This document shows, piece by piece, positions 6,876 to 58,547 of a DNA stretch of 64,000 nt; positions within the stretch are counted from its first letter, which is position 1; each line of letters starts with the position of its first letter. The notes below the pieces were generated by a model. That model saw nothing but the letters and a program-made list of their open reading frames with translations, made no database searches and was not told the origin of the DNA. This stretch comes from Dehalococcoidia bacterium (GTDB lineage: Bacteria > Chloroflexota > Dehalococcoidia > Plut-88900). The position numbers were made by a program, and so were the translations under genes. Where the stretch lies: the NCBI GenBank assembly GCA_963668115.1, contig OY764147.1:2317761-2381760 (forward strand). Direction: 5' to 3'.

Positions 6876-6881
6876 CCCCGA

Positions 6882-7811: not shown

Positions 7812-7843
7812 TCAAGTCCGATTTGGCAGTCCTGCGTAGGGCC

Positions 7844-9286: not shown

Positions 9287-9450
9287 TCCTTGTTCAACTC
9301 AACCGGCATTTGCGCGCCCAAAAGCTTCAAAACGGGCGTCGCTTCTAAACATCCTACCACCTACTAACCCATCTAGCACAAGCTACGGGGTATAGCGCGG
9401 GGCCGAGCGCCCAGAGCATCCGCCATGTTTTCGCGGGTATAATCCTCCCC

Positions 9451-10590: not shown

Positions 10591-10631
10591 GTCGCGGGCA
10601 AAGCATCATCTCTATCGAAACCGGAGGCCTC

Positions 10632-11958: not shown

Positions 11959-11990
11959 ATTGTCGGATAGCAGAAGAAGGACAGAATAAG

Positions 11991-13073: not shown

Positions 13074-13109
13074 GGAATTTTGCCGACCGGTTAGTGAGAG
13101 AGGCCCCCC

Positions 13110-13877
13110 ATGCTAGACCTATCTGATAGCCACACCCATCTCGAAGACTACGGAGACCAGCTCCCGGATGTCGTCCAGCGCGCCCGGGACGTCGGTGTCA
13201 GGCGCATCATCACCGCAGGCAGCTCCCTCGAATCTTCCAGGGCCGCCGTCCGCATCGCCGACGAGTACCCCGACATCTACGCGGGCGTCGGCATCCACCC
13301 CCACGCCGCCCACCTCAACATCACCGAGGAAACCTTCGAGGAGCTTGCCGGTCTGGCTCAGTCCAGCGAGAAGGTCCTGATGATCTGTGAACCGGGCCTC
13401 GACTACTTCAAAAGCAAGGCCCCGCGAGAGCTCCAGCAGGACGTCTTCCGCCGACACCTCTGCCTTGCCCGGGAGCTGCAACTGCCCGTGGTATTCCACA
13501 GTAGAGAGGCCTACTGGGACTGCCTGCGCATCCTCAAGGAGGAACGAGTCTACGAGGTCGGGGCCATCATGCACTACTTCGTCGCCGACCAGCGTATCGC
13601 CGAGGAGTGCATCGACATGGGAATCTACGTCTCCTTCTCCAAGACCCTGCTCGCCCTCCCCCACCTCCACCCGATAGCCGCGTCCCTGCCCATGGAGTAC
13701 ATGGTCATAGAGACCGATTCCTTCCCCCAGCCCTGGAAAAAGAAGAACCCCCTGGAACCCGCCCAGCTAATCCGCGTCGCTGAAAAAGTCGCGGAGCTAC
13801 GCGGCATCACCGTCGAGGAAGTCGCCGCTCAGACCACGGCCAACCTGAAGTACGTGTTGGGGCCTAAGCTACTATAG
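13110..13877 (+). CDS. tatD: TatD family metal-dependent hydrolase/DNase
   Basis: N-terminal SDSHTHLED; GIHPH; full-length TatD architecture. Confidence 0.85.
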   Translation: MLDLSDSHTHLEDYGDQLPDVVQRARDVGVRRIITAGSSLESSRAAVRIADEYPDIYAGVGIHPHAAHLNITEETFEELAGLAQSSEKVLMICEPGLDYFKSKAPRELQQDVFRRHLCLARELQLPVVFHSREAYWDCLRILKEERVYEVGAIMHYFVADQRIAEECIDMGIYVSFSKTLLALPHLHPIAASLPMEYMVIETDSFPQPWKKKNPLEPAQLIRVAEKVAELRGITVEEVAAQTTANLKYVLGPKLL

Positions 13878-14721
13878 GGGTGTCGTCCCGGTTGGCCCAC
13901 TCACCCATCGAGCCGTCGTAGTTGCTGACGTTTTCGTATCCCAGGAGCCTGAGGGCAAACATCACGTGTGCCGCGCGAATTCCGCCCTGTCAGTAGGTGA
14001 CTACCTTCTTCTCCGGCGTGATCCCCGCCGACGCATAGAGCTCCCTTAGCTCGTCGGGCGGCAGGAAGGTCCTGAACTCGTCGTCGGTGACCGCTTTCGT
14101 CCACTCGATGTGCACGGTGTCCGGCAGGTGCCCGCCCCGCTTGTTCCCCCGGGTCTGCACCCCCGTGTACTCGTCGTCCGTCCGAACGTCCAGCGTGACC
14201 CATCCCGGCTCGTTCAGCCGCTCCTTCAGTTGGTCGAGGGTGCAGTTGTATTCCGGGTGCATGGTCGGGGTGAAGGTGGCTGGCGGGTACGGCGACATCG
14301 GCCTGCCGCTGTGGTACGTCGCCAGGGGTGCAGGCTCCACCGCCCGACCCTCCGCTATCCACTTGTTCCACCCGCCGTTGAGCACCCGAACCTTCTCATG
14401 GCCGTGCATCCGCAGGAGCCACCACAGCCGACCCGCGTACAGCCCGCCCCAGTCGTCGTAGGCTATTACGTCGTGCTGGTCGCCGATGCCTACCTGCCCC
14501 ATCTCCTCGGCGAACTGGTCGGGGCCCATGACCAGCGCCCGGTTGTCGGGGTCCTTGAAGTAGTTGCGGTTCAGTCCCATCGCCCCCGGAATATGCCCCC
14601 TCTTGTACCCGTCGATGGGCCCCATATCCACGATCCTCAGGTTGGGGTCATCTAGGTGCTCTGCCAGCCATTCCGTCTCGACGATGAGGTCCGGTCTGTT
14701 GTGAGTGTTTTGGTTAGCCAT
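13864..14721 (-). CDS. two-domain rhodanese / 3-mercaptopyruvate-type sulfurtransferase. Candidate selenoprotein: the in-frame TGA at + coordinates 13990-13992 coincides with the catalytic Cys position (…EKKVVTY-U-QGGIRAAHVMFALRLLGYENVSNYDGSMGEWANRDDTPIVA).
   Basis: The annotated ORF 13990-14721 stops at TGA immediately before the conserved active-site loop. Reading through in the same frame gives the canonical rhodanese C-terminus (CxGGxRA...LGY.NV.NYDGS..EW) and ends at TAG 13864-13866. An SD (AGGAGAGGAG) precedes the ATG at 14721. Confidence 0.65.
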
Positions 14722-14740
14722 ATCTTGTCCTGCTCCTCTC

Positions 14741-15097
14741 CTAACTCCCCACCGCCCCCTCCAACGCCTCCACGTTGTACCCCAACACCGGCGCCGACCC
14801 CCCGACCACTATCGGTCTCTTCAGTAGCGCCGGCTCCTGCGTCATCAGGTCCAGCTTTTCATCGTCGGAAAGGGCGTCGACATCCAAACCCAGCTTCTTC
14901 ACCGCCCGACTCTTCCGTGAGAATAGCTGCTCCATGGGTATGATCTCCAGCAGACCCTCGATCTCTTCACGGGACAGGGGCTCCTTGAATATATCCCGCT
15001 CTATGTGGTCGATTTCTTTCTGCGAAAGAAACTCCTTCGCCCTTCTGCAGGAAGTTCAGGAGCGTTTCGTGTACAGCGTTATCCCGGTTGCAGCCAT
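14741..15097 (-). CDS. Spx/ArsC-family thiol-redox protein. Candidate selenoprotein (UxxC): the in-frame TGA at + coordinates 15056-15058 replaces the first Cys of the CxxC motif (MAATGITLYTKRS-U-TSCRRAKEFL...).
   Basis: Strong RBS CGAGGAGGAAATC precedes the ATG at 15097. The translation aligns along its whole length with Bacillus Spx (VTLYTSPSCTSCRKA...ERNIFSEPLS...LLRRPII...VGYNEDE), with the TGA at the Cys10 position. The downstream ORF 14741-14935 is the C-terminal remainder in the same frame. Confidence 0.65.
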
Positions 15098-15270
15098 GAT
15101 TTCCTCCTCGCGATTGCGGTAAAGCTTATGGGGCCATTCTACGCGCCGACCCCCTCCCAGTCCACTGTATGTACTGGGATTTGTTTGATTTGATGATGGG
15201 TTTTGACTTTGCAAGGGTGATGTTCATGTCTGATTCGCGATGGGAAGGTGGGATATGATAGGAATGGGCG

Positions 15271-15690
15271 ATGATCAATAGGTACTACAAATATTCGGAG
15301 TTGACCGGAAGGGTTATCGGGTGCGCGATGACGGTGCACTCGGCCTTGGGCAACGGCTTCCAGGAGGTGATCTACCAGCGGGCATTGGAGATCGAGATGG
15401 CCGACCAAGGGCTTTCCTTCAGCCGGGAACATGAAATGCCTATCTACTACAAAGAGCAGCAGATCGGTGCCAGAAGAGTGGATTTTCTGGTCGATGGCCT
15501 GGTCTCCGTTGAGCTGAAGGCTGTCATAAACCTCGAAGATGTTCACCTTGCGCAGGCCATCAACTACTTGGAGGCCTATGACCTTGAGGTAGGACTGCTA
15601 ATCAACTTCGGTGCCAGAAGCCTCCAATTCAAAAGGGTCGCTAACGGCAAATTCAAACAGAAGAACCAGGTAAACCCGGCAATCCCATAA
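15271..15690 (+). CDS. GxxExxY family protein (PD-(D/E)xK-like)
   Basis: Motif GNGFQEVIY (G-x-x-E-x-x-Y) and overall length match the GxxExxY family. Confidence 0.65.
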   Translation: MINRYYKYSELTGRVIGCAMTVHSALGNGFQEVIYQRALEIEMADQGLSFSREHEMPIYYKEQQIGARRVDFLVDGLVSVELKAVINLEDVHLAQAINYLEAYDLEVGLLINFGARSLQFKRVANGKFKQKNQVNPAIP

Positions 15691-15777: not shown

Positions 15778-17637
15778 TCACGGTTCAGACGTTAATTCCG
15801 GGTCCCCCCCATACACCCCCGAGAACCTACCCGAAATTTTCGCACCCGACCCCGTCCCCGCCTCCAATAGTTCCAGCGTCCCCGATGTAAAGGGAGTATA
15901 GCTGTCCGGTGCGACCGCCCCCGCCGGTATGGACCACGTACCCCCGGCTATCGGGTCCCGACCAATGACCAGCGTTGCACCGTCGGCCACCCGTGACACG
16001 GGCAGCACAACGGTCATTCCCGTTATGGAGCCGTCAGCCTCGACGCTGAAGCCGGCTATGGAAGCCAGCTCCCCGACCCCCGGCAGGATAGCCTGCTCAT
16101 CCGGGCTTGCGTGACCGGCGGTTATGGCCACCCCCTCCGTAGACTCTTCGTTTCCGTTCAGCAGAAGCCGCGTAACCGTCCCCTCTTCCCACGGATCGAC
16201 GTTGCGGTTGCTTCCCCAAACGGTCTCGAAGCTCACTTCCAGGGAACCCGACTCCCCCGCCACTTGCCCATAGTCGGGCTCAGGCCAGTCCGGGGGTTCC
16301 GGCGTGATGTCGGCCAGGATCTCCCCCCGACGCTTCAGTATGAACTTTCTCACCCGCTCCGTGTCCTTGGCCGCCGCCTCCCGTGCCCCGGGCTCGGCGT
16401 GCCTCTGGACTATGGCCGCCATCCGGTCGACACTCGCCATCAACTCATCCTCGTCCCAGATCGTCTCCAGCAGTTCCTTCATCCGGGCCGCGTATTTCGC
16501 CCGCCAGTCGGGGGTGTTGTAAAGGCGGTTGGGAATGGCCGTAAGTGCCAGCACCGAGGGGGGCGGGTCGCTAATGTTGTCGAACGGGTTGGGGTCCTCC
16601 TTCAGGTGGAAGGTGTCGTCCACCCCCCAGGGTATGAACACGAAGGGGCCGTCGGGCTCCCGGTAGAAGTGGTAGTTGTTGCGGTTGCCGGCATATCCGT
16701 CCCAGTGGCCCACCAAAACCTCCGTGGCCCAGAAGGACAGGAACCTGTCCAGGTCGACGACCTCGCCCAGCGCTTCCACCCCGCCCCCCGACCCATCCCG
16801 AAGGGCGGCCACCACCGCGTCGATATCCGACCAATCGTCTTCATCCTCGTTGGTCTTCTTCTCAATCGTGCCCCGGTAGTCGGGCGTGAAATCGCTCACC
16901 GTACCCTCGTACAGGTTCCCGTCTGCGCTGTCGAAATGGCGGGCCAGGAACGGCTTCTTGATCTCCTCCACGTGGACGTACAGCCCCAGTTCCTTGCCGT
17001 TCACCGTAACCGTGGCGAAATTGCACCGCGACGCAGGCAACCCCGCGGCCGCGAAGACCTGGTACGTCAAACAGGTGTTTATCATCGATGGGTCTTGGAC
17101 GCTGTTGTTCAACGTCATGCGCTCGATGACGCCTCCAAGGGTCTGGCCGTCCACGTACTTGTCGAACCGGAGCTTCAGCGCCGGCTTCGTGTCGCTCTGT
17201 GACCCGAGAAATCCCTTCTTCCGCACCCCGACCTCCGAGTGCGTCTCCCCATCCACCGTCACCGTCCCGGGGAACCACGTGTAGATGTCCGAAAAGGGAC
17301 GCGACAGCCCGAACTCCTCTATCTCCGCCATCACGTCCTCGAAGGTTCGCGTCTGGTGGCGCAGCGTGTCCCAGTCCTCGCGCGCAATCTCGATTTCTAT
17401 GTCCAGCACCCGACCCAGGTTGAAATATGTGGCGCTTGGGTCGACGACAGCGGTGTCAGGTGCAGATGTAGGAGATGTAGGGGTGGGTGTGCTGGTAGGA
17501 GGGGGCGCGGGTGTGGGAGTGGGCGTAGGAGTCGGGTCTGGGGAGGAACATCCCGCCAGGACCAGGATGGCAAGGGAGATGGCGACCAGAGCCAGGGCCG
17601 CCCGTCTACTGCTTCGCAAAGCTCGATTCATGTCCAA
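15778..17637 (-). CDS. CotH-like (kinase-fold) lipoprotein with an N-terminal Pro/Thr-rich linker
   Basis: Lipobox LVLAGCSS, then a PTPTPTPTPAPPPTSTPTPT stalk. A CotH-like core (NRNNYHFYREPDGPFVFIPWGVDDTF; GNLYEG) follows. Confidence 0.6.
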   Translation of the reverse strand: MDMNRALRSSRRAALALVAISLAILVLAGCSSPDPTPTPTPTPAPPPTSTPTPTSPTSAPDTAVVDPSATYFNLGRVLDIEIEIAREDWDTLRHQTRTFEDVMAEIEEFGLSRPFSDIYTWFPGTVTVDGETHSEVGVRKKGFLGSQSDTKPALKLRFDKYVDGQTLGGVIERMTLNNSVQDPSMINTCLTYQVFAAAGLPASRCNFATVTVNGKELGLYVHVEEIKKPFLARHFDSADGNLYEGTVSDFTPDYRGTIEKKTNEDEDDWSDIDAVVAALRDGSGGGVEALGEVVDLDRFLSFWATEVLVGHWDGYAGNRNNYHFYREPDGPFVFIPWGVDDTFHLKEDPNPFDNISDPPPSVLALTAIPNRLYNTPDWRAKYAARMKELLETIWDEDELMASVDRMAAIVQRHAEPGAREAAAKDTERVRKFILKRRGEILADITPEPPDWPEPDYGQVAGESGSLEVSFETVWGSNRNVDPWEEGTVTRLLLNGNEESTEGVAITAGHASPDEQAILPGVGELASIAGFSVEADGSITGMTVVLPVSRVADGATLVIGRDPIAGGTWSIPAGAVAPDSYTPFTSGTLELLEAGTGSGAKISGRFSGVYGGDPELTSEP

Positions 17638-17883
17638 AAAGCTTCCCCACCCCTTCCTATCCGATTGCCGGATACTTTAGCAACCGACAGCGCCGGTAAA
17701 CAAGCCAACAACAGCTTTTCACATGTCGCAACCGAGGTCACTCCCACCCTCCCCACCCACTCTTTGCCGTCATTCCCGTGCCCCGACACGGGAATCCAGA
17801 ATCAGACGCCTACTTTTTTAATTGGAGACGAGACCCACCCCCGCCCCTTGCCCTCAAGTCATAGGGTTGCCTATAGACTACTA

Positions 17884-19230
17884 TCAATAGTCCGCTAGGA
17901 ATACCTCCATCCTCTCGGCCAGGGCATCCAGTTTGAGGCCCAGCCACTTCTCATCAACCAACACTGCCTTTTCCAGCGCAACAGGAGAGGTGGGGAGGTC
18001 GGCTAGGACCTCTGGTGCTACGCGCTCAGGCCCCAATGGTAGCGCATGGAGATTCAAGGGTCCGTAGGGAATGTAGTTTGAAATCTCTACGTTAATCTCG
18101 GGGTGCCCCGTCCAAGCAATGAATAGTTCGGCCAGAGTCTTGTTCGGAGACCCTTTCGGGATATAGAACACATTGGCCTGGGTAACGTGTCCACATTCGT
18201 AGCAGTAGTGGATGTTGTTTCCGCCCGGTTCCCTCTGAATATTCCGTATCCGGTAGTTCCATGCCGTGCACATGTCAACTTCATCGTTCATCAGGCCTGA
18301 CGGGCAGTCGGTGCCCCCCGACCACCAGAACTGGATGTGGGGCTTGATCTGTTCCAGCTTTTCGAAAGATTGGTGTATCTGTTCAGGGGTGAGCTTGGCT
18401 GTAGATGTCCGACCATCGACAGTGTTCAGAATATCCGGCCTTCGGGCGAAGTGGGCAAAGAATATGTTTTCGTTCACCCTTCTACCCATCCACCTGGTGC
18501 CCGGAAAGTTCTCAACGTCCCAGAAAGCAGTCCAGTCGTTCGGCTTCTTGCCATCCCACAAAGTGTCGATCTTATCCTTTCTATAGGCGAGACCTGTGGA
18601 CCAGACCATCCCTCCACCACCACTCCACGGTGATATAGTCACTTCAGGATAACCGGTCAAGTATCCGTAGTGGATCGCCGGTGTTAGTTCTTCCAGATCC
18701 CCTGTAGGGCCGAGTTGCCATACAGCCCTCATGCCAGAGTCTCCGATGTCCCAGTTCATGTTTCCGGTTTCCAACCTCAAGCGGACCTTGGAGTCCTCAA
18801 CGGGGCTGTCTTCAATTATCTCAATCCCGAACTTCTCTTGGAAGGGCAGGAAGTAAGCCTGTCGCTGGGCTGCTTGATAAGAACCACCCCAGGAGACCAC
18901 AGTCAGACTCCGGCCCCTGTAGTTGGCCAGTTCCGCCTCAATATCCTGGAGGGTGGCGGGATTTTCCGCCGTCCATTGATGCCGAGGCTGAGGCTCGCTA
19001 GTGGGTGGTGGCGTCGGAGTGGGAATTGGCGTAACAGTCGGGGGTGGGATGGGCGTAGGTGTTTGAACAGGCGTCGAAATACTTATAGGCGGGGTGGCAG
19101 TCAGCAAGGCTTGCTCCACGGCAGTCTGGACGGCAGAGCCTGCGTCCTGGGTAGGGGGTGGAGCTTCCACAGTGCCGGAGCACGCGGCAAACGCGACCAG
19201 CAGGGCTATCGCCGCAGCCACAAATTTCAT
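17884..19230 (-). CDS. extracellular solute-binding lipoprotein (ABC transporter substrate-binding protein, family-1 like) with a Pro/Thr-rich stalk
   Basis: Signal sequence plus AFAACSG lipobox and a PTPIPPPTVTPIPTPTPPPT linker. The mature domain resembles PotD/iron-type periplasmic-binding proteins (LTVVSWGGSYQAAQ...). Confidence 0.6.
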   Translation of the reverse strand: MKFVAAAIALLVAFAACSGTVEAPPPTQDAGSAVQTAVEQALLTATPPISISTPVQTPTPIPPPTVTPIPTPTPPPTSEPQPRHQWTAENPATLQDIEAELANYRGRSLTVVSWGGSYQAAQRQAYFLPFQEKFGIEIIEDSPVEDSKVRLRLETGNMNWDIGDSGMRAVWQLGPTGDLEELTPAIHYGYLTGYPEVTISPWSGGGGMVWSTGLAYRKDKIDTLWDGKKPNDWTAFWDVENFPGTRWMGRRVNENIFFAHFARRPDILNTVDGRTSTAKLTPEQIHQSFEKLEQIKPHIQFWWSGGTDCPSGLMNDEVDMCTAWNYRIRNIQREPGGNNIHYCYECGHVTQANVFYIPKGSPNKTLAELFIAWTGHPEINVEISNYIPYGPLNLHALPLGPERVAPEVLADLPTSPVALEKAVLVDEKWLGLKLDALAERMEVFLADY

Positions 19231-19862
19231 CGGCCCACCCTACCCCCGCCCCCCACACCCGTCAACCAATCCCCAAAAACCCGCCCCCAAAAACCCTTGC
19301 TTTCTATTATATTCGTGCTAAACTGTCTGCGGTTCGAACTACTATTCATAATCAAAGGAGGTACACCAACACCCAGGGAAGCCCACCCGACCCCACACGG
19401 GTTCCGTGCCCCTTCCCTAACCCCCAGGCGATGGAAGGTCCATCGACTCTATGCGGCATCAGGCCTCTATATCGACGCCCTTGCCGATACGACGCCCCTC
19501 ACCCGGGCGTATACGCCTCGCCGACTTAACCCCCGCCGAGGAATTCCGCGAGTCTTTCACTCGTTATGCAGGGCCTTAGCGCCCTTATGCGGCTCCACCC
19601 GCCCACGGCGGCTTCGAGCCGATATGCCGTCCCGTTCAGCGGTCGAGCGCTGATGCGGAGGACGGATGTCCCCACGCAGAGACGCCCTCGACACCGGCAA
19701 GTCTCCCAAGGCATGCGTGAAGGGAAAGGCAGGACAACCGCCGATGCTGCCAGCGTCGGCGTAGGTGCCATCGAGATCCTGCATCCGAGTCCCGGACCTC
19801 CATCGCCTACCCAAACCCCACAACCAAACAACCTCTCCCCCACCCTCATCCCCTCCCCTCTC

Positions 19863-20086
19863 CGTAGGGGCGACCGGCTGGGCGCCCTCCCCGGTGTGGG
19901 GTGGGGGGTTCCTTCCCCGTTCCTTAAACAATCAAAGCCGTGCCTGAAATTGCAAAACAATCAAAAACCCACCCCTCGCGCCACGCGAATTCCCCAGAAA
20001 TCCCTTTCAGGCGTCATTCAATCAAAACAGCTACGAGTTCAATCAATCTTCAATCAACGTTCAATCAATGTTCAATCAAAACCCCA
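19863..20086. repeat. left arm of a long imperfect inverted repeat (core about 225 bp at about 90% identity with 25436-25642; weaker similarity extends to about 19700). Contains 5 tandem TTCAATCAA motifs.
   Basis: The reverse complement of 25436-25642 aligns base by base (…ggtgtggggtggggggttccttccccgttccttaaacaatcaaagccgtgcctgaaat…ttcaatcaa…). The shadow ORFs here are shared with those of the right arm. Confidence 0.85.
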
Positions 20087-20233
20087 CCCGAACAAGCGCA
20101 CCAAATTGACACCTCCACCTCCCCACTATAGAATAAAGGCCGCTTTTGGGAGGAATCACCATCAGTCTTGTGCCTTTACGCGCGGCGTCGCGCCCCGCCA
20201 ACGGCACGCCCCCATAGCTACAGGAGGTCGATA

Positions 20234-21379
20234 ATGGCAGATCTGTCCCGTATGGCCGCTATCGTCGGCGTCGACGAGTCCGACGAAATAGGCAAGGTAC
20301 CCAACAAGTCCCGCCTCCAGCTAGGCTCGGAGGCCGCATTCAACGCCCTCGACGACGCCGGCCTATCGCTATCGGACGTCGACGGGCTCTTCGTCGCAGG
20401 CCCGTCTCCCTATAACATGGCCGAATACCTGGGCATCACCCCCAGGTACACCGACGGCACCAACGTCGGCGGCTCTTCCTTCGTCATATACGTTGAGCAC
20501 GCCCTCGCCGCCATCAGCGCCGGCCTCATCGACGTTGCCCTCATCGTTCACGGCGAAGCGGGGCGAAGCTCTCGGGCCTACGCCGGCGACGACCCCAACA
20601 TGCCCATCGCCCAGTACGAGCACCCCTACGGCCTCGTCATCGAGCCCCACCCCTACGCCCTTGCCGCCACCCGCTACATGCACGAGTTCGGCCAGGAACG
20701 CACCCAGAACGCCTTGGGCGAGATCGCCGTTTCGACCCGAAAGTGGGCCCAGCTCAACCCCAAGTCCTTCATCAAGGACGACATGTCCATGGAGGACTAC
20801 CACGAGTCCCGGTGGATATCCTGGCCCTTCCACCTCTTCGACTGCTGCCTGGTTACCGACGGCGGCGGCGCCACGGTAATCACCTCCGCGGCGGTGGCCA
20901 AGAACACCAAGAAGAAGCCCGTCTGGGTCCTGGGTACCGCCGAGGGCCACGATCACGGCGAGGGAATCCTCCAGCAGGCCGACCTCTGCTCCACCATCGC
21001 CAGGGAGACCGGGCCCCGGGCCCTCGAAATGGCAGGGCTCAAGCACTCCGACATAGACCTCGCCATGATCTACGACTCCTTCACCTACACCGTCCTCATC
21101 ACCCTGGAGTCCCTCGGATTCTGCGGCCGCGGTGAAGGCCCCGATTTCGTCGCCAACCAGCGCACCGCCCCCGGCGGCGACTTCCCGATGAACACCAACG
21201 GTGGCGGCCTCTCCTACTGCCACACCGGCATGTACGGCATGTTCCTTCTCCTGGAAGCCACCCGACAGTTGAGAGGCGAGTGCGGAGACCGTCAGGTCGC
21301 CGGCGCCAAGACCTCCCTGGTCAACGGTACCGGAGGCACCCTCTCCTCCACAGGCACCATAGTCCTCGCCGCCGATTAG
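20234..21379 (+). CDS. thiolase-like protein (SCP-x/lipid-transfer-protein-type thiolase), paralogue 1. The true start is the ATG at 20234, preceded by CAGGAGG.
   Basis: N-terminus MADLSRMAAIVGVDESDEIGKV. Thiolase-like architecture, paired with a downstream DUF35 gene. Confidence 0.8.
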   Translation: MADLSRMAAIVGVDESDEIGKVPNKSRLQLGSEAAFNALDDAGLSLSDVDGLFVAGPSPYNMAEYLGITPRYTDGTNVGGSSFVIYVEHALAAISAGLIDVALIVHGEAGRSSRAYAGDDPNMPIAQYEHPYGLVIEPHPYALAATRYMHEFGQERTQNALGEIAVSTRKWAQLNPKSFIKDDMSMEDYHESRWISWPFHLFDCCLVTDGGGATVITSAAVAKNTKKKPVWVLGTAEGHDHGEGILQQADLCSTIARETGPRALEMAGLKHSDIDLAMIYDSFTYTVLITLESLGFCGRGEGPDFVANQRTAPGGDFPMNTNGGGLSYCHTGMYGMFLLLEATRQLRGECGDRQVAGAKTSLVNGTGGTLSSTGTIVLAAD

Positions 21380-21413
21380 TAACCAGTGAGCTACTTCGAA
21401 AGAGGTGATTGAT

Positions 21414-21824
21414 ATGGCAGACTACAACCTTCCCGTCCCCGTACCCCAGCCCGAGTCCGACTTCTACTGGGAAAAAGCCAAGGCCCACGAACTCTGGTTT
21501 CGCAAGTGCAACGAATGCGATAAGGTCTTCTTCTACCCCAGAGACTTCTGCCCCGGCTACCACTGCAAGGACGTTACCTGGGTCCAGAGCAGCGGCAAGG
21601 GCACCATCTACGCCTTCACCATAGTCCACCGCTCCCCGCCTCCCTTCCGTGAGGTGTGCCCTTACGTGGCAGCCGTCGTGGAACTCGAAGAAGGCCCCAG
21701 GATGCCCACCAACATCGTCATCGACGACCCGACTCCCGAGAACGTCTCCATCGGCATGCCCGTCGAGGTCATCTTCGACGACATAACCGACGAAATTTCC
21801 CTGCCCAAGTTCAAACCCGTCTAG
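21414..21824 (+). CDS. DUF35 family protein (Zn-ribbon + OB-fold), the usual partner of SCP-x-type thiolases
   Basis: CNECDKVFFYPRDFCPGYHC rubredoxin-like zinc ribbon followed by an OB-fold region. RBS AGAGGTGATTGAT upstream. Confidence 0.8.
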   Translation: MADYNLPVPVPQPESDFYWEKAKAHELWFRKCNECDKVFFYPRDFCPGYHCKDVTWVQSSGKGTIYAFTIVHRSPPPFREVCPYVAAVVELEEGPRMPTNIVIDDPTPENVSIGMPVEVIFDDITDEISLPKFKPV

Positions 21825-21856
21825 CTCCCGGGCCGGTGCAACTGAGGAGGTCCCTA

Positions 21857-23002
21857 ATGGCTGACCTTTCGCGAAAAGCCGCCATCGTCGGCGTCGACGA
21901 GTCTAACGAGATAGGCAAGGTACCCAACAAGTCCCGCCTCCAGTTGGGCTCGGAGGCCGCTTTCAACGCCCTCGATGATGCCGGCCTCTCCCTCTCTGAC
22001 GTCGACGGGCTATTCGTCGCAGGCCCTTCCCCCTATAACATGGCCGAATATCTGGGCATCACCCCTAGGTACACCGACGGCACCAACGTCGGCGGCTCTT
22101 CCTTCGTCATCTACGTGGAGCACGCCCTGGCAGCCATCAGCGCCGGCCTCATCGACGTGGCCCTGATAGTCCACGGCGAGGCCGGTCGCAGCTCTCGGGC
22201 CTACGCAGGGGACGACCCCAACATGCCCGGCGCCCAGTACGAGGACCCCTACGGCCTCGTCATCGCTCCCCACGGTTACGCCTTGGCTTGCAGCCGTTAC
22301 ATGCACGAGTTCGGCGAAGAGCGTACCCGTGACGCCCTCGCCGAAATAGCCGTCGCCACCCGCAAGTGGGCCCAACTCAACCCCAAGGCCTTCATGCAGG
22401 ATGACATGACCATCCAGGACTACCACGAGTCCCGGTGGATATCCTGGCCCTTCCACCTCTTCGACTGCTGTCTCGTCACCGACGGCGGCGGCGCCACCGT
22501 CGTCACCTCAGCCGCCGTGGCCAAGAACACCAGGAAGAAGCCGGTCTGGATTCTAGGCTCCGCCGAAGGCCACGACCACGGAGACGGCATCCTCCAGCAG
22601 GCGGACCTCTGCTCCACCATCGCCCGGGAGACCGGGCCCCGAGCCTTGGGCATGGCCGGCCTCACCCACGACGACATCGACCTCGCCATGATCTACGACT
22701 CCTTCACCTACACCGTCCTCATCACCCTGGAATCCCTCGGCTTCTGTGGCCGCGGCGAGGGGCCGGAGTTCGTGGCCAACCAGCGCACCGCCCCCGGCGG
22801 CGACTTCCCGATGAACACCAACGGCGGAGGTCTCTCCTACTGCCACACCGGCATGTACGGCATGTTCCTCCTCCTCGAAGCCGCCCGGCAGCTTAGAGGC
22901 GAGGGTGGAGACCGCCAGGTGAAGGACGCCAAGACCTGCCTGGTCAACGGCACCGGCGGCACCCTGTCCTCCACCGGCACCCTCGTCCTGGCCTCGGACT
23001 AG
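21857..23002 (+). CDS. thiolase-like protein, paralogue 2. Start is the ATG at 21857, preceded by GAGGAGG; the annotated ORF 21656-23002 carries a spurious N-terminal extension.
   Basis: Its first 130 aa or more are nearly identical to paralogue 1 (MADLSRKAAIVGVDESNEIGKVPNKSRLQLGSEAAFNALDDAGLSLSDVDGLFVAGPSPYNMAEYLGITPRYTDGTNVGGSSFVIYVEHALAAISAGLIDVALIVHGEAGRSSRAYAGDDPNMP). Confidence 0.8.
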   Translation: MADLSRKAAIVGVDESNEIGKVPNKSRLQLGSEAAFNALDDAGLSLSDVDGLFVAGPSPYNMAEYLGITPRYTDGTNVGGSSFVIYVEHALAAISAGLIDVALIVHGEAGRSSRAYAGDDPNMPGAQYEDPYGLVIAPHGYALACSRYMHEFGEERTRDALAEIAVATRKWAQLNPKAFMQDDMTIQDYHESRWISWPFHLFDCCLVTDGGGATVVTSAAVAKNTRKKPVWILGSAEGHDHGDGILQQADLCSTIARETGPRALGMAGLTHDDIDLAMIYDSFTYTVLITLESLGFCGRGEGPEFVANQRTAPGGDFPMNTNGGGLSYCHTGMYGMFLLLEAARQLRGEGGDRQVKDAKTCLVNGTGGTLSSTGTLVLASD

Positions 23003-23020
23003 CCTTTCAGCCAGGAAACG

Positions 23021-23056
23021 AAAGAGGGGGAGTGCGCTTTCGCACCCCTTCTTTGT
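23021..23056. terminator. bidirectional rho-independent terminator between the convergent thiolase and LON-N genes
   Basis: aaagagGGGGGaGTGCGctttCGCACCCCttcttt: a GC-rich hairpin flanked by an A-tract and a T-tract. Confidence 0.5.
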
Positions 23057-23084
23057 TACGTGCTGGATTTCGTTGGGAGCCGGG

Positions 23085-23777
23085 TCAGTTCAGGGAGAAC
23101 CGGGGCCGGTCAGAGGAGTCGTCCTTCTTGCCGCCCCGGGCTTCTTTCTTTCGCTTCTCTGCAAGGAAGAGCTCCAGGCTCAGATTGGTGGATTGGAGGA
23201 GTTTCAGTTCTTCTTCGAGGCGCACCTTTGCCGTAGGAGCTTCCAGGAGACCCTGCTTCTCCCGTGGCCCGGCCATGAGCTCGGCGGCCACGGTGTATGA
23301 CAGCCTCTCGGGGTCCCGGTCAAGCTCCACCGTCCCGTCTCCGCCACCACGCAGGGACGTCAATAGCGACATGTAGGTGCGGAAGTGGCGGACAACTCTG
23401 CTGGTTAGCTCGCCGGGGGTTGGCTCTTCGGTCCTTTCGAGCAGCTCAACCCGGCCTACCATGTAGGGCGTTATCTGCTGGACATCGACTATACGGAACA
23501 CGTCCTGGCCTATGGCGCTCAGGTGCATCCTTCCCTGGCCCTGGGGCACGACGTCGGTGATCCGCGCCAAGGTTCCCACCTCGAAGGGGATGGCCGATCC
23601 GCCCACCTCTTTCCCCTCCCTGATCAGCGCCACCCCGAAGGTCTTGTCTCCCTCCAGGCATTTTTGCATCATCAGCTTGTACCGCTCTTCGAATATGCGA
23701 AGAGGAAGGGCCATGCCGGGATAGAGGACAACGTTGAGCGGGAACAGGGGAAGGTCTATGGGCTCGCCGTCCGGCAT
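23085..23777 (-). CDS. LON N-terminal (substrate-binding) domain-containing protein
   Basis: N-terminus LPLFPLNVVLYPGMALPLRIFEERYK is the hallmark LON-N motif. There is no ATPase or protease domain. Confidence 0.7.
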   Translation of the reverse strand: MPDGEPIDLPLFPLNVVLYPGMALPLRIFEERYKLMMQKCLEGDKTFGVALIREGKEVGGSAIPFEVGTLARITDVVPQGQGRMHLSAIGQDVFRIVDVQQITPYMVGRVELLERTEEPTPGELTSRVVRHFRTYMSLLTSLRGGGDGTVELDRDPERLSYTVAAELMAGPREKQGLLEAPTAKVRLEEELKLLQSTNLSLELFLAEKRKKEARGGKKDDSSDRPRFSLN

Positions 23778-23780
23778 GGG

Positions 23781-24257
23781 TTAACCCTGCGCCGCCGACC
23801 CCGACGCCTCACGCTCCGGCATCCGCTTGCCGATTTCCCCCTCTATGAAGGAGAAGTCCTCTTCCGAAAACAGGTGGACGTTGCCCTGGAAGGCCAGGTG
23901 CCAGTGCTGGGGTGGCCACCTCTTGACGTACTCAAGGTGCGGGACTATGGACTTGGCGTCCACGTAGGTCCCGGGCTCCAGGATGAGGTCGGGCTTGATT
24001 CCGAAGCGGAAGGGGTATTCCTCGCCCTTCTTCTTGCTGTTCCAGATCGGGGCGCGGTCTTCGTAGTAGGGGGAGGTTATGGTCGCCGTGCCGCCGAACT
24101 GCTGAACGCCGGTCAGGTAGTAGAGGACCCGATCCCCGGGCTCCATGCGCTCGGCCTTCTTCCGGTGCCGGCTCTTGATTCCCTGCAACTCGAACCCGAG
24201 CTCCCGAGAAATCTCGAAGTTCTCTGCAGAGCTTACGATCATCCAGTAATTGGGCAT
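23781..24257 (-). CDS. EVE/PUA-like domain protein (tentative)
   Basis: The N-terminal NYWM... opening and GDRVLYY pattern are reminiscent of EVE domains. This is a weak call. Confidence 0.4.
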   Translation of the reverse strand: MPNYWMIVSSAENFEISRELGFELQGIKSRHRKKAERMEPGDRVLYYLTGVQQFGGTATITSPYYEDRAPIWNSKKKGEEYPFRFGIKPDLILEPGTYVDAKSIVPHLEYVKRWPPQHWHLAFQGNVHLFSEEDFSFIEGEIGKRMPEREASGSAAQG

Positions 24258-24296
24258 AGCTGATAAATCTCCTTCTTCGAGGTTGTCCCGGCCCTG

Positions 24297-25337
24297 CTAG
24301 CCGCCGATGTGGTACATCTCCACCTTCCTGGCCCGGCTCCCGGCTAACGACGCCCGCTCCTCCGAATAGCGGTCGGCCCTGCGGGCCCAGATACCCTTGA
24401 TAATGTCGGTGAGGTCATCGTCGGTGGCGCCGGCGCGGAGGGGGCCCCGGAGGTCCTGGCCTTTGGAGGCGAAGAGGCAGGTGTAGACCTTCCCCTCCGC
24501 CGAGATGCGGGCACGAGTGCAGTCACCGCAGAAGGGGTTGCTCACCGAGGATATGACACCGATCTCGCCTTCGCCGTCGGCGTAGCGGTAGCGGTCTGCG
24601 ACTTCGCCGCGGTAGCTCTTGTCGACGGGCTCGAGGGGCATCTCCCGGCCAATGAGGTCGATCACCTGCTGCGAGGTGACCACCTGGTCGGACTCCCACT
24701 GATTCAGGTTGCCTACGTCCATGAACTCGATGAAGCGGAGGATGTGACCCATCTCCTTGACCCGACGGGTGAGGTCGACGATGGTGTGCTCGTTGACGCC
24801 CTTCTGGACGACTACGTTGATCTTGATGGGCGTCAGGCCGGCTTCCTCGGCGGCGCGGATGCCTTCCAGCACCCGTCCCGTCCCGAAACCCCGACCGTTC
24901 ATGTGCCCGAATACCTGGTCGTCCAGGGTATGGAGGCTTACCGTGACCCGCTTCAGGCCGGCATCCCGGAGGGTTTGCGCCTTCCTGGCTAGCAGGTAGC
25001 CGTTGGTGGTCAGGGCCAAGTCCTCCAGCCCTTCGATGGAGGCAAGCTGGCCGACCAGGACTTCCAACTGGTCGCGGAGGAGGGGTTCGCCGCCGGTGAG
25101 GCGTATCTTGCGCACGCCGAGGCCGACGAAGAGCCGGGCAACGCGGCTTATCTCCTCGAAGGTGAGGATGTCGTCTTTGGGCAGGAAGCGGTAGCGCTCG
25201 CCGAATATCTCCGCGGGCATGCAGAAGGTGCATCGGAAGTTGCACCTGTCGGTGACGGATATGCGCAGGTCCCTGAGGGGCCTCCCGAAGAGGTCGAGAA
25301 TGGTGTCGGGCCGGTTTGTGGAAGCGTTGGTACTCAT
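24297..25337 (-). CDS. moaA: GTP 3',8-cyclase MoaA (radical SAM molybdenum cofactor biosynthesis)
   Basis: Radical-SAM motif CNFRCTFCMP. C-terminal MoaA cysteines (CGDCTRARISAEGKVYTCLF). Full length. Confidence 0.9.
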   Translation of the reverse strand: MSTNASTNRPDTILDLFGRPLRDLRISVTDRCNFRCTFCMPAEIFGERYRFLPKDDILTFEEISRVARLFVGLGVRKIRLTGGEPLLRDQLEVLVGQLASIEGLEDLALTTNGYLLARKAQTLRDAGLKRVTVSLHTLDDQVFGHMNGRGFGTGRVLEGIRAAEEAGLTPIKINVVVQKGVNEHTIVDLTRRVKEMGHILRFIEFMDVGNLNQWESDQVVTSQQVIDLIGREMPLEPVDKSYRGEVADRYRYADGEGEIGVISSVSNPFCGDCTRARISAEGKVYTCLFASKGQDLRGPLRAGATDDDLTDIIKGIWARRADRYSEERASLAGSRARKVEMYHIGG

Positions 25338-25435
25338 GCGCCGCAGATGGATAGGCCACCCCTCCCGACTTCCATTCTACCCGCGACCCTCGGGGGTGTA
25401 CAAACGAGGGCACCGGTAGGGCCGGTTAGAGGTGC

Positions 25436-25642
25436 AGGGGGTTTTGATTGAACATTGATTGAACTCGTAGCTGTTTTGATTGAACGACGCCTGAAAGGGA
25501 TTTCCGGGGAATTCGCGTGGTGCAGGGGTGTGGGTTTTTGATTGTTTTGCGATTTCAGGCACGGCTTTGATTGTTTAAGGAACGGGGAAGGAACCCCCCA
25601 CCCCACACCGGGGAGGGCGCCCACGAGGGACGCCCCTACGGG
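25436..25642. repeat. right arm of the long inverted repeat (partner of 19863-20086); contains 3 TTCAATCAA motifs (reverse complement). Weaker similarity extends to about 25830.
   Basis: Direct base-by-base match to the reverse complement of the left arm. Confidence 0.85.
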
Positions 25643-26338
25643 GGAGGAAGAGAGAGGGGCCGGGTTGTTGGGTTGGGGGGTTTGGGTTTGCATTTTGTCT
25701 GTCGGGTTTTGGGTTGGCGATGGAAGACGCTTCCGGGACGCTGCCCCGTTCCTGTGCTTCGGGTTATTCGACGCCCCGGGGCAGGGGCGCCGGCCCGCTT
25801 TTGCCGCTGTGCGGCCTCTGGCCCTAAATACGCTGGACTTGGGCAAGGACCGTAAGGGCCAGCAGGTCCGAGCCATACTCCCTGGGGGGTTGGCTGCACC
25901 GCAGAAGGGCGGTATGGAGGCTCTTCCAGCGTCCGATGCAGAGCCTCTCGCAGGCGTAAAGGTTTCCAAGTTTGCCGGTGCGACCCGGGAGTGCGGGGGA
26001 CCACCGGCACCCGGCCTGATTGAGCGGTCGGGTTACCGAGAAGTCCTCGGCGCCGGGTCTATCCGACCGCACTTCCGCTGCAAAGAGCGGCTTCCTCCCG
26101 AGGGAGGCTTCCCCTGAAAGAGGCCGAGAGGGCGTCTTAGAGGGGCTTCACAATGGAACGTAGCGTCCAGGGCGTCTATCCATCGCCTGGGGGTCAGGGA
26201 AGGGGCACGGGACCCGTGTGGGGTCGGGTGGGCTTCCCTGGGTTTTTGGTGTTCCTCCTTAGGTCAGTGAGAATATCTGGTCGACCGTAGGGTATGATAA
26301 CGCCTTTGCTCAGATGTGTCAAGCAAATGTACGGGTTG

Positions 26339-26387
26339 GGAAGGAATTCCCCCGATTCCTCGCGGGGCATAGGGATGACATGGGGGT
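26339..26387. repeat. partial copy of the hairpin-repeat family (shares gattcctcgcggggcat with the copy at 28330-28346)
   Basis: Sequence identity to part of the 28258-28356 element. Confidence 0.5.
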
Positions 26388-26440
26388 TGGGGGTGGGGCT
26401 AGGGAAGGGGGTGTAGTGCTAGGATGCAGGTGATTATTCA

Positions 26441-26510
26441 GGAGGGATGGATTACCACCTCCGTGGGAATGATCCGCCATAGGCGGACAGGCTCCCCTCG
26501 GGGGTGGGGA
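26441..26510. repeat. hairpin-repeat family copy: GGAGGGATGGATTaCCAC-CTCC-GTGGGAAT palindrome, plus CCGCCataGGCGG and CCCCtcGGGG hairpins
   Basis: Three consecutive short palindromes. The same unit recurs at 26564-26724 and 28258-28356. Confidence 0.6.
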
Positions 26511-26563
26511 GGGGGGACGGGGTTGGAGTGACGGAAGATGGGAAGGGTGGGTTGCGGGGTTGT

Positions 26564-26724
26564 GGGTGAGTGTTTCGGAGGGATGGATTCCCACCTCCGT
26601 GGGAATGACGGATTAAAGGGGCGGGAATGATCCGCCATAGGCGGACAGGCTACCCTCGAGGGTGGGGGCCGCCCTGCCCCGCCCCGCGGGATGGATTCCC
26701 GACTACTCGGGAATGACGGAGGGG
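26564..26724. repeat. hairpin-repeat family, compound copy (two GGATGGATTCC-N-GGAATGAC units, with stems CCCAC/GTGGG and CCCGA/TCGGG)
   Basis: The GGGTGAGTGTTTCGGAGGGATGGATTCCCACCTCCGTGGGAATGACGGA core matches 28258-28304 except for compensatory stem changes. Confidence 0.6.
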
Positions 26725-26820
26725 AGGGGATTTTTGGTTGTATGGTGCGTTTAGAATGTACGGGAGGGGGTGATATGGAAATCAGGGGGAGGGAGAGAAG
26801 TGAAGACGGTTATCAGAGAA

Positions 26821-28233
26821 ATGGGGTGGTTGGCCTTGGTGGTGGGGTTGCTGATTGGGGTTGCGGCCTGCGCCTCTGACTTGGAAACACTCGTCTCCGA
26901 TGTCACGCCTAGCCCTTCTACTAGGGATTCGGAGACCGTCACAGCCCACATCACACCCACAATCCATGCCCTGCCGCAGCCTCCATTCTACGGTGCCGGC
27001 ACCCCATCATTGGATGAGCGCATATACGAATCGGATATCGTAGTCAGAGTTTCCTTATCATCCGTCACCGATGATCTATTGAAATTTAAGGCCATTGAAT
27101 ACCTAAAGGGCTCTGGAGCATCCGAGATCAGCGTCCATGCCTCCACCACTGGACGAAATACCTCCTGGGACGGACGGGAAGCGATACTCTTCCTCACCCT
27201 ACCGAAGAGTCAAGGGACAACAGGTTCCTCAGACAGTTCCTCATCACAGTTCATATTCACAGAATCCCAAGCCGTCAAGCACTATAGTGGTAACCTGTCC
27301 GATGGTTATACCATAGATACCCGGAACCCTGCGTGGCTACCTGCGGAATCTGCCTCTGGTACAACAGGGACTAGCGGTGGTAGTCAGACATTTATTACGG
27401 ATACCCAATCTCCCACCGGTGCTCTGTCTCCAGTGATTTCTCTGACGGATCTTCGTTCCAAGATAGCGTGGCAGGAAGTGAAAGAAGGTGTAGCAGGATA
27501 CGAGGATTGCATCTTGGCGCGCCTAGATCACGAGCAATGGTTCCGAAACTGGGAGACCCATTATGGGCGCGCATGGCCTCTTCATCAATTCAATGCGCGA
27601 GTGAATTCAGGAACGGGCAAGGGAGCAGTTATTAAGGCTTCCGGCAATTACAACTTGAATAAGTACTGGAAAGAGTGGTTAACCGGTATGGATGCAGAAC
27701 TCTTCAGCACTCAGGTCGTCGATAACGATGAGAAGCCCGGCAACGGCTTCAGCAGCAATATTACAACCGCCCGTCCTCTGATTGGCGGAACATACAATTA
27801 TATGTTCCACAGACAATGGCCCGAATACATGCCATGCAACTTTGTCTCTCCTCGTCATCGTCTAGCGTTAATAGTCACCGTCACTGCTCCGACGGGGACT
27901 GTTCACGAAGCCTTCTTCGATCCTGCCTCCACCTCCCTAGGGGTGGGTTTCCGGGGAAGTCAAGGCACACTCTCTCCCGCCTCCTTCACTCACGGGGACG
28001 TCTCATCCTCCATCGTCGGACTCGGGTGGGAGAATGGCAAGGTCATGCTTGCCCTTTCGCCCTACGTGTCCCTTGCGGGCAAGACCTTGGACTTCATCGA
28101 ACTGGATGGGACGGTGGGCCTTAGCCTGAGGTTCGACGATGGTGTGTCGGATGGGGAGTCGGGGACGGTTGTGTGGAAGGTGGATGAGCGGCCGTGGGAG
28201 TCGGGGGATGAGTTGATGATTCGGATTAGGTAG
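26821..28233 (+). CDS. hypothetical lipoprotein. Probable start at M18 of ORF 26770-28233; the gene is AT-richer than its surroundings.
   Basis: Signal peptide with LIGVAAC lipobox. The composition is Ser/Thr/Gly-rich and protein-like. I recognise no functional motif. Confidence 0.5.
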   Translation: MGWLALVVGLLIGVAACASDLETLVSDVTPSPSTRDSETVTAHITPTIHALPQPPFYGAGTPSLDERIYESDIVVRVSLSSVTDDLLKFKAIEYLKGSGASEISVHASTTGRNTSWDGREAILFLTLPKSQGTTGSSDSSSSQFIFTESQAVKHYSGNLSDGYTIDTRNPAWLPAESASGTTGTSGGSQTFITDTQSPTGALSPVISLTDLRSKIAWQEVKEGVAGYEDCILARLDHEQWFRNWETHYGRAWPLHQFNARVNSGTGKGAVIKASGNYNLNKYWKEWLTGMDAELFSTQVVDNDEKPGNGFSSNITTARPLIGGTYNYMFHRQWPEYMPCNFVSPRHRLALIVTVTAPTGTVHEAFFDPASTSLGVGFRGSQGTLSPASFTHGDVSSSIVGLGWENGKVMLALSPYVSLAGKTLDFIELDGTVGLSLRFDDGVSDGESGTVVWKVDERPWESGDELMIRIR

Positions 28234-28257
28234 GGGGAGAGGTGAGTTGTGGGGATG

Positions 28258-28356
28258 GGGGTGAGTGTTTCGGAAGGATGGATTCCTGCCTCCGCAGGAA
28301 TGACGGAGTGGTCGGGGGTGGGGCGCTGGAGATTCCTCGCGGGGCATCGGAACGGG
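28258..28356. repeat. hairpin-repeat family copy immediately downstream of the lipoprotein gene (stem variant CCTGC/GCAGG)
   Basis: GGTGAGTGTTTCGGAAGGATGGATTCCTGCCTCCGCAGGAATGACGGAG. Both stem arms changed together relative to the 26580 copy. Confidence 0.6.
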
Positions 28357-28520
28357 AAGAGAGGGGCGTCGGGAAGGGGAGGAAGGAGTGGAGGGATGTC
28401 ATGCTTGCATGTGAGCGAAGTCTGTGGGGCTGTGTGTCAATGGGAGGAAGTGAAGCAGGGCCGTTCGGAAGGCATTTGACAGGGTCAAGCCGGTAAAATT
28501 ATATTGGGCATACATCTCTC

Positions 28521-29075
28521 TTGGAGAGTGCCGAACTGCGCCTCCTCCTCGTCTCGTTAGCTCTTGCCTTCATCCTGGCTTGCCTCGGTTGCCGCGACGC
28601 GGGCTCTTTGGAGATATCTCTGCCTTCACCCACTGCGCCTTCGGAGATAGTCGTTTACGTTACGGGGGAGGTGGTCAGCCCGGGGCTGTACACCCTTCCC
28701 CCGGGTCAGAGACGCCTTATAGAAGCGGTTGATACGGCGGGCGGCTTTACGGAAAATGCCGACCGGGCCAGCGTGAACGGCGCCCTGGTCATCTACGACC
28801 AGGAACATATCCACGTCCTCCCCCTGCCCCTTGCGCCCGACTCGTCCTCGGCCGGTTCGCAGCTGGGAACTACCTCCGGCGGGCTTATCGACCTTAACTC
28901 CGCCTCTTTCGAGGAGCTTCAGACGTTGCCGGGCGTAGGGCCGACAACGGCGGAGTCGATCATAGAGCACCGGCTGGCCAACGGCCCCTTCACGCGAGTC
29001 GAAGACCTAGTCGAGGTCGCAGGGATAGGGGAGAAGACTTTCGAATCGCTCCAGCACCTGATAACGGTGCGTTGA
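28521..29075 (+). CDS. comEA: competence protein ComEA (helix-hairpin-helix DNA-binding), TTG start
   Basis: C-terminal LIDLNSASFEELQTLPGVGPTTAESIIEHRLANGPFTRVEDLVEVAGIGEKTFESL HhH tandem motif. N-terminal membrane anchor. Confidence 0.8.
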   Translation: MESAELRLLLVSLALAFILACLGCRDAGSLEISLPSPTAPSEIVVYVTGEVVSPGLYTLPPGQRRLIEAVDTAGGFTENADRASVNGALVIYDQEHIHVLPLPLAPDSSSAGSQLGTTSGGLIDLNSASFEELQTLPGVGPTTAESIIEHRLANGPFTRVEDLVEVAGIGEKTFESLQHLITVR

Positions 29076-40952: not shown

Positions 40953-44090
<3,138 letters not shown>

Positions 44091-44138
44091 TGCATTAAGA
44101 CACGCACAGAACGTTCAACTTCTCTATTCGGCACATGG

Positions 44139-58538: not shown

Positions 58539-58547
58539 CACTCTCCC

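Follow-up and report, generated by a model that had tools for sequence, protein, structure and literature searches.

A 5.1-kb gene block within a 64,000-nt window of a Dehalococcoidia bacterium genome (contig OY764147.1; positions below are those of this window unless a related locus is named) is bracketed by two long arms that are reverse complements of each other. We found that these arms are two copies of a modular, multi-copy, lineage-specific intergenic element, each 0.75–0.9 kb long here and placed on the strand of the operon that it faces. The element looks like a dispersed modular intergenic repeat in which an apparent large structured RNA gene is embedded, without an Rfam family. Taking the observations together, we consider it probable that dispersed copies of this modular element carry a transcription unit for a structured RNA, followed by a tail that either ends or insulates the transcript or is read by a protein.

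Extent and modules of the two copies

The inverted repeat reported in a preliminary description of the window was recovered at the same place by a repeat search and by blastn. The repeat search returned three inverted pairs: 19879–19975/25527–25623 (97 nt, 98% identity), 19963–20057/25444–25538 (95 nt, 89%) and 20059–20085/25438–25464 (27 nt, 100%). These are merged by blastn into a match of 19809–20057 with 25444–25687 (89.6% over 251 nt, E 6e-90), and overall the reverse-complementary arms span 19809–20085 and 25438–25687 at about 90% identity. More diverged similarity had been described as continuing outward to about 19700 and 25830; a weak match does reach about 19799 and 25724, with no alignment beyond. 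An additional inverted patch that had escaped the first reading was detected by both methods (patch A, 19355–19435 versus 26179–26260, 82 nt, 94%). It lies 370–490 nt farther out than the inner repeat (patch B), across a non-homologous stretch, so that the repeated units are about 0.75–0.9 kb long with non-homologous middles. The arms occupy unusually long spacers (19231–20233 and 25338–26769). In agreement with the preliminary description, each arm is located directly upstream of the start of an operon facing away from it (gene starts at 20234 and 25337), both in the same relative orientation, and each carries tandem iterated units: exact copies of TTCAATCAA in the 64 kb are confined to the arms, five to the left one and three to the right one, with a tandem spacing of 11 nt. 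A larger inverted duplication including the flanking genes was considered and rejected, as the SBP gene (17884–19230) and the gene for a 487-aa protein (26770–28233) are unrelated.

Both arms had been described as non-coding, and this holds. Open reading frames (ORFs) crossing the arms gave no Pfam match, and long ORFs running through related copies show no conservation of the reading frame; in type 3 copies (types are defined below) the ORF is out of frame after about 30 codons. A protein-coding role of the arms was ruled out by the lack of a Pfam match, by frame-breaking indels and by variation in the number of 11-nt units. Long open frames spanning whole elements are nevertheless recurrent (19566–20234 on the + strand, 25334–25969 on the − strand, and also in the related loci L084 and L068); they terminate at the downstream start codon or overlap it (TAATG, ATGA). 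They are not conserved as frames and are probably explained by the G-poor, GC-rich composition of the elements.

Module coordinates and order were derived from an alignment of family copies, with the strand given as running towards the operon. The order of modules is identical in all copies aligned. The modules of the left copy are:

19297–19324, + strand: own promoter, −35 TTGCTT, 16-nt spacer, extended −10 TGcTAAACT (score 8)
19331–19361, + strand: predicted 5' leader with palindrome GGTTCGAAC (19331–19339) and Shine-Dalgarno (SD)-like AAGGAGG (19355–19361), no start codon nearby
19374–19418, + strand: conserved hairpin CAGGGAAG...CTTCCCT around CCCGACCCCACACGGG; together with the leader it forms patch A
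19427–19807, + strand: structured domain of type 1, 381 nt, closed by helix P1 (GGCGATGGAAGGTCC / GGACCTCCATCGCC)
19808–19833, + strand: C/A-rich, G-poor linker TACCCAAACCCCACAACCAAACAACC
19867–19901, + strand: two GC-rich REP-like hairpins (GGGGCG..CGCCC; CCCCGGTGTGGGG), start of patch B
19926–19970, + strand: optional module of two AAACAATCAAA units, also present in L005 and L084 and found alone upstream of moaA in L101
19981–20085, + strand: array module with head CCACGCGAATTCCCCAGAAATCCCTTTCAGGCGTC, five TTCAATCAA units (20017–20079, the last four 11 nt apart), then AAAACCCC

The right copy consists of the corresponding modules on the other strand:

26294–26322, − strand: own promoter, TTGACA-17-TATCAT
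26279–26286, − strand: palindrome GGTCGACC
26254–26260, − strand: SD-like AAGGAGG of the leader, no start codon
26196–26240, − strand: hairpin CAGGGAAG...CTTCCCT
25716–26187, − strand: structured domain, 472 nt, closed by P1 (GGCGATGGATAGACGC / GCGTCTTCCATCGCC)
25662–25715, − strand: C/A-rich linker AACCCAAAACCCGACAGACAAAATGCAAACCCAAACCCCCCAACCCAACAACCC
25601–25636, − strand: GC hairpins, REP-like
25532–25576, − strand: optional module of two AAACAATCAAA units
25438–25520, − strand: array module with head and three TTCAATCAA units (25476–25484, 25455–25463, 25444–25452)

The left promoter matches the family consensus TTGACT-16-TGcTAAACT only weakly. The palindrome next to it, in the form GTTCGAAC, corresponds to GGTCGACC of the right copy, and the features of the left leader are kept in copies of types 1, 2 and 5. 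P1 has the family form GGCGATGGAAGGTCC / GGACC(T)TCCATCGCC, a helix of 14–15 bp closing a domain of 300–475 nt. The linker is followed in the family layout by CAATCAA modules and then by an array of 3–8 (G)TTCAATCAA units, mostly 11 nt apart, whose head has the form CCACGCGAA..AGGCGTC; the REP-like hairpins are optional, and hairpins related to them are also found elsewhere in family loci. The element ends 20–35 bp upstream of the −35 box of the operon's own promoter.

The inverted repeat thus consists of the family-conserved modules of two copies, patch A being leader plus hairpin and patch B the tail. The two arms face in opposite directions because each faces the start of its adjoining operon and the two operons converge. 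The most similar stretch of the arms (98%) comprises the GC hairpins and the optional module. With a likeness of up to 98%, the tail modules seem to have been copied or converted recently, and gene conversion possibly keeps the family modules of both arms alike.

A separate REP-like family, GGGATGGATTCC..GGGAATGAC plus GC hairpins, was noticed nearby, with at least four copies flanking the gene of the 487-aa protein (26404–26729 and 28235–28316). Units related to this family are inserted inside many of the elements in the loci of other genomes.

A dispersed family and its gene context

Scanning one genome per species with the array pattern TTCAATCAANNTTCAATCAA yielded at least 99 matching stretches. 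The pattern was found at 25 or more loci in three metagenome-assembled genomes (MAGs) of Dehalococcoidia (CBDBLV01 with at least 13, OZ241876.1 with at least 10, OZ220734.1 with at least 2), the remaining matches, among those listed, being single and unrelated. The family is not restricted to the tail: the whole left spacer, including the middle that differs from the right arm, matches other family loci at 85–94% identity, for example 19271–19828 with L005 at 89% and 19397–19808 with L052 at 93.5%. Profiles of the P1 flanks retrieved 19–20 copies with nhmmer, and the array head with the first units is nearly invariant in 27 copies. Neither plasmid and phage collections nor viral contigs contained the window itself or a close relative of the element. 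Among JGI metagenome contigs the P1 motif had no match and the array head occurred in one contig only (L100). A literature search on the motif and on repeat RNAs of Dehalococcoidia returned nothing relevant.

The interiors of the P1 domains fall into at least five mutually unalignable types. That of the left arm is of type 1 and is 93–94% identical to the domains in L005, L052 and L092, and no blast match to other interiors was seen for the right domain. At one orthologous locus of two MAGs (L005, 3274–4280; L001, reverse strand, 859–1890), with flanks of about 91% identity, L005 carries a type 1 interior and L001 a type 2 interior, which points to a cassette-style exchange between copies through the conserved ends.

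Gene context was taken from calls filtered by GC content at the third codon position, longest-ORF calls being unreliable in GC-rich DNA. Among the matches listed, the gene 3' of the array is co-directional in 23 of 25 cases, within head-to-tail contexts the count is 10 to 2, and the gap between array and start codon is mostly 9–160 nt. The genes 3' of the arrays include rpsO, recA, a tRNA gene (confirmed by Rfam search), an M20 peptidase gene, thiolase and moaA. In L036 (reverse strand, 1670–1800) the array upstream of recA abuts an extended −10 promoter, TGTGCTATCAT, and the recA ATG follows about 8 nt after the −10 box, suggesting a leaderless recA mRNA.

The preliminary description had proposed that the arms might be a duplicated regulatory region under one regulator. 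With the array upstream of unrelated genes at so many loci in three MAGs, the arms belong instead to a generic repeat family. A regulator acting on both operons could still work through the arrays; it would then act on a genome-wide element and not on a private link between two operons.

Such a regulator is the core of another explanation, which we regard as possible but doubtful. The (G)TTCAATCAA arrays would be head-to-tail DNA sites, one per helical turn, for a protein such as a winged-helix response regulator of the OmpR/PhoB type or a nucleoid protein; the operons would share a cis element, and the spread of the repeat element would have carried the sites beside many promoters. Operators of the OmpR/PhoB family consist of direct repeats with 11-bp periodicity. 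The 10–11 bp phasing and the near invariance of the whole 10-mer fit this idea, as do the position and facing of the arrays relative to gene starts, the direct contact with the recA promoter, the existence of arrays without an RNA-like domain and the related palindrome GTTCGAAC at the element's own promoter. On the other hand, the distance from array to −10 box varies from about 20 to more than 90 nt, relatives without arrays retain the same promoters, the downstream genes have no common theme and no candidate regulator emerged. Invariance extends to the non-repeat spacer AAMCAGCTACGAG, as expected if the arrays are inherited within a repeat element and not selected site by site.

The structured domain and the G-poor tail

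In line with an RNA function of the element, both domains fold better than shuffled controls (z-scores of −5.5 for the left and −4.9 for the right domain), and P1 closes a multi-branch domain in both. Alignment of eight type 1-like domains gave 90 consensus pairs with 91.8% paired. Double changes were observed at 17 of the 90 pairs in these eight copies, compared to 6.6 ± 1.8 in shuffles (0 of 500 reaching this number) and 3–10 with slid partners. Five type 3 copies gave 131 pairs, 11 of them compensatory, and in type 3 the outer stem of the conserved hairpin is formed by AGGAAAGG/CCTTTCCT, again a compensatory change. The distal half of P1 is replaced on both strands by another complementary pair in the right arm (AGACGC/GCGTCT), with pairing retained, and also in L101, where a U-A pair is in addition changed to C-G.

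The position of the element's own promoter is constant, while its hexamers differ between types. A sigma-70-like promoter with a score of at least 9 was found within 290 nt upstream on the element strand in 16 of 18 copies, compared to 1 of 18 on the other strand; the left copy of the window is one of the two weak ones. This conservation supports the element strand as the one that would be transcribed; no intrinsic terminator was predicted on it. Taken together, the compensatory changes and the conserved promoter argue for a structured RNA, and from these sequence features the element contains an apparent promoter-driven structured-RNA gene, predicted to be read towards the operon.

Several observations weigh against this interpretation. 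The covariation alignments are small, comprising 5–8 sequences, and they are also the source of the structures. P1 hardly varies, and a fixed-column covariation test on P1 alone shows nothing, although this test is uninformative because the variant copies pair in a +1 register. The consensus fold of the opposite, G-rich strand is as good or better, and the shared helices show balanced wobble counts, so that neither wobble pairs nor fold energy tells the folding strand; the conserved hairpin, followed by U5 on the opposite strand, resembles an intrinsic terminator there. Arrays lacking the P1 domain occur at about 8–9 loci and P1 lacking arrays in L101 and L102; the modules are thus separable, and the two parts may have separate functions. 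As to the tail, the coding strands of this genome are generally C-rich, so that an excess of C over G says little here, and the full 10-mer, including a G, is nearly invariant.

Searches against Rfam 15 gave no family for the domain: the whole window at gathering score returned only the 23S rRNA and a tRNA, both spacers at E values up to 10 only noise, and 18 related loci at gathering score only tRNAs. A boxA-like antitermination motif was rejected, since 9–12 of 200 shuffled sequences score as high as the 11-nt match ACAACCGAATA to the leader of the 23S gene.

The conserved 15-bp inverted repeat around a variable interior of 300–475 bp also invites a reading as a DNA element, in which the 14–15 bp arms of P1 would be the terminal inverted repeats of a miniature inverted-repeat transposable element (MITE) or the invertase sites of a 300–475 bp switch, the RNA structure being incidental. 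The many copies per genome, their position upstream of genes and the different interior types at orthologous loci (L005 versus L001) agree with it. We nevertheless judge it improbable. Conservation extends beyond both P1 arms, to the promoter and hairpin on the 5' side and to the linker on the 3' side, making the P1 arms internal, and the interior helices carry compensatory changes. Among 17 copies no reversed interior was found, and the orientation to the flanks is the same within each type. A comparison of the window, L101 and L102 with the empty site of L105 showed no evident target-site duplication, the outer boundary not being precisely placeable. Plasmid, phage and viral collections contained no match.

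The tail differs from the domain in composition. It contains 38% C and 16% G on the left and 39% C and 17% G on the right; C equals or exceeds G in 94–98% of 78-nt windows, and [(YC)N9-13] chains of 6–7 are present (Y, pyrimidine). Rho utilization (rut) sites have been characterized by a bubble of some 80 nt or longer in which C exceeds G and which contains four or more [(YC)N9-13] dimers (PMC6144790). Both features are found in the tail. Coding strands in the surroundings (17000–29000) are C-rich too, with a GC skew of about −0.1 to −0.28 over the + strand thiolases and about 0 to +0.15 over the − strand genes, which is unusual. The near-invariant 10-mer fits recognition of a specific sequence better than a generic rut tract. 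The tail could be a Rho loading or insulation tract or a set of iterated protein-binding sites, a choice that sequence alone does not decide.

In the explanation that we favor, a structured non-coding RNA would be transcribed from the element in the direction of the operon. The tail, unstructured and poor in G, with its phased YC dinucleotides, would then terminate or insulate this transcript just before the native promoter. Alternatively, a sequence-specific protein may read the tail, so that the element could sit beside a promoter without destroying it. The comparisons show family membership, the layout of the modules, the position of insertion relative to the conserved native promoters, the conservation of the element's own promoter and the compensatory base changes; transcription, its strand and the role of the tail are inferred.

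The gene block, its relatives and known systems

The features between the two arms are the following (gene families from Pfam):

20106–20134, + strand: native promoter of the thiolase-DUF35-thiolase operon, TTGACA-17-TAGAAT, outside the repeat
20234–21379, + strand: thiolase
21405–21824, + strand: DUF35/ChsH2-like
21857–23002, + strand: thiolase
about 23021–23056: terminator-like hairpin flanked by runs of A and T, between the two convergent operons
23085–23777, − strand: LON-N
23781–24257, − strand: EVE
24297–25337, − strand: MoaA
25374–25402, − strand: native promoter of the moaA-EVE-LON-N operon, TGTACA-17-TAGAAT, outside the repeat and kept in L101 and L105

The hairpin between the converging operons had been noted before and is borne out. 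We searched for relatives of the block (L101–L108) via homologues of the LON-N protein. In L101–L105 moaA-EVE-LON-N converges on thiolase-DUF35-thiolase in the same gene order and with the same native promoters; the shorter contigs L106–L108 contain only the moaA-side part. Both arms are present together in none of L101–L108, and L103–L105 have neither, their spacers being short (235–380 nt) and element-free. The thiolase native promoter is kept in relatives without the element. Nucleotide homology to the relatives extends from 20083–20101 to 25404–25408: it starts just after the left array and stops about 30 nt before the right one. L102 carries a minimal element (promoter, P1 domain and linker, no array) upstream of the thiolase gene, while L101 has a variant P1 element at this position and only the AAACAATCAAA module upstream of moaA. 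Element-free, minimal and variant spacers indicate that the sites were occupied and remodelled over time and that the block is not cargo. Judged from this comparison, the 5.1-kb gene block (20234–25337) is old, apparently ancestral, and the arms are later additions beside older promoters.

The preliminary description had alternatively taken the arms for the ends of an invertible or mobilisable segment, that is, recombination ends of a 5.3-kb segment flipping or moving as a unit. Inverted copies of about 250 bp at 90–98% identity and 5.4 kb apart would suffice for homologous recombination, and in L101, the closest long relative (about 86% nucleotide identity), the block is reversed relative to the rhodanese-CotH flank, with other inverted REP-type repeats of 165 nt in the flanks (6470–6634 and 14675–14839, within region 6300–15600). 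Yet in L102–L105 the block keeps its gene order and its neighbors (rhodanese side; ComEA/ComEC side) without having both arms, and L106 has part of it without arms. Since block and native promoters are kept in relatives without both arms, the arms are unlikely to be the ends of a cassette. No transposase or recombinase is encoded in the block, nor any dedicated site-specific recombinase among the genes from 15.8 to 29.1 kb, and all other retrieved family copies are solitary. In L101 an insertion sequence (DDE_Tnp_1) sits at the junction with the rhodanese-CotH flank, and the far flank is non-syntenic, its PIN protein having no homology to the 487-aa protein of the window, which speaks for a complex rearrangement not bounded by these arms. 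We therefore consider a cassette very improbable.

Some other repeats and RNA genes of the window were noted in passing. Over their first 300 nt (20222–20521 versus 21845–22144, including 12 nt upstream of the start), the two thiolase paralogues share 90% identity, which suggests that gene conversion has acted inside their operon. Within 40954–44376 lies an isolated 23S rRNA gene: upstream of it a 16S gene is missing, a 5S gene was not detected anywhere in the window, and three partial direct repeats resembling tRNA (44141–44296) come after it, before tRNA-Met (44302–44376). Direct repeats of 74–75% identity 1329 nt apart (58545–58982 versus 59874–60311) are presumably tandem paralogous genes.

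Among known dispersed repeats, BOX of Streptococcus pneumoniae, REP/BIME and ERIC-type repeats have several traits in common with the element: all occur in many copies, are confined to intergenic DNA, are built of modules with an internal subunit that varies in number, are predicted to fold when transcribed, often lie near gene starts and lack a transposase of their own. It differs from BOX, REP and ERIC in showing no sequence similarity, in its greater length (0.75–1 kb), in its own promoter and in a domain of 300–475 nt with exchangeable types; its variable subunit is an AT-rich 11-nt unit, whereas that of BOX is a 45-nt box. Correia (NEMIS) elements of Neisseria measure 100–155 bp and have terminal inverted repeats and a TA duplication. 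Like them, the element is dispersed just upstream of genes, has a (here predicted) promoter and a long helix possibly cut by RNase III, and could affect the expression of neighbors. In contrast to Correia elements the helix lies inside the element, conserved sequence continues past it and a duplication was not observed.

With OLE, GOLLD, ROOL, HEARO and raiA, large non-coding RNAs of bacteria catalogued in Rfam, the apparent RNA gene shares the size range, many hairpins closed by a long-range helix, covariation and a narrow lineage; unlike these it has no Rfam 15 match, ten or more copies per genome, unrelated interiors between conserved ends and a repeat tail. The tail is similar to rut regions in being a G-poor, C-rich tract of about 290 nt, unstructured outside short GC hairpins, with YC at 11-nt spacing. 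Rut sites have no conserved sequence, whereas the 10-mer of the element is nearly invariant, and a Rho role is predicted from composition. Tandem direct repeats with a 6–7 bp core and 11-bp periodicity beside promoters also recall OmpR/PhoB operators (Pho boxes), from which the arrays differ by up to eight units, a variable distance to the −35 box and their nature as a mobile-looking module.

For the window, these results speak against the tempting readings as a private regulatory duplication or an invertible cassette: the long spacers result from insertion of repeat elements beside old promoters. Inverted copies of 250 bp placed 5 kb apart are also likely to cause rearrangements or misassembly of these genomes. 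Among bacterial dispersed repeats the element is unusual, as it comprises an apparently complete small gene for a covarying, hairpin-rich RNA with exchangeable interiors and a phased tail, and faces gene starts. Tentatively, the arms may represent an undescribed class of large (about 0.4–0.5 kb) multi-copy RNAs with their own promoters, conserved ends, swapped interiors and a phased UUCAAUCAA tail set against the promoters of housekeeping and metabolic genes, and soil Dehalococcoidia might use them for a genome-wide, RNA-based modulation or insulation of adjoining promoters. If transcribed, the element would constitute a further class of large, multi-copy RNAs, found in an uncultured soil lineage that has been little studied, and would offer a testable case of repeats shaping promoter neighborhoods.

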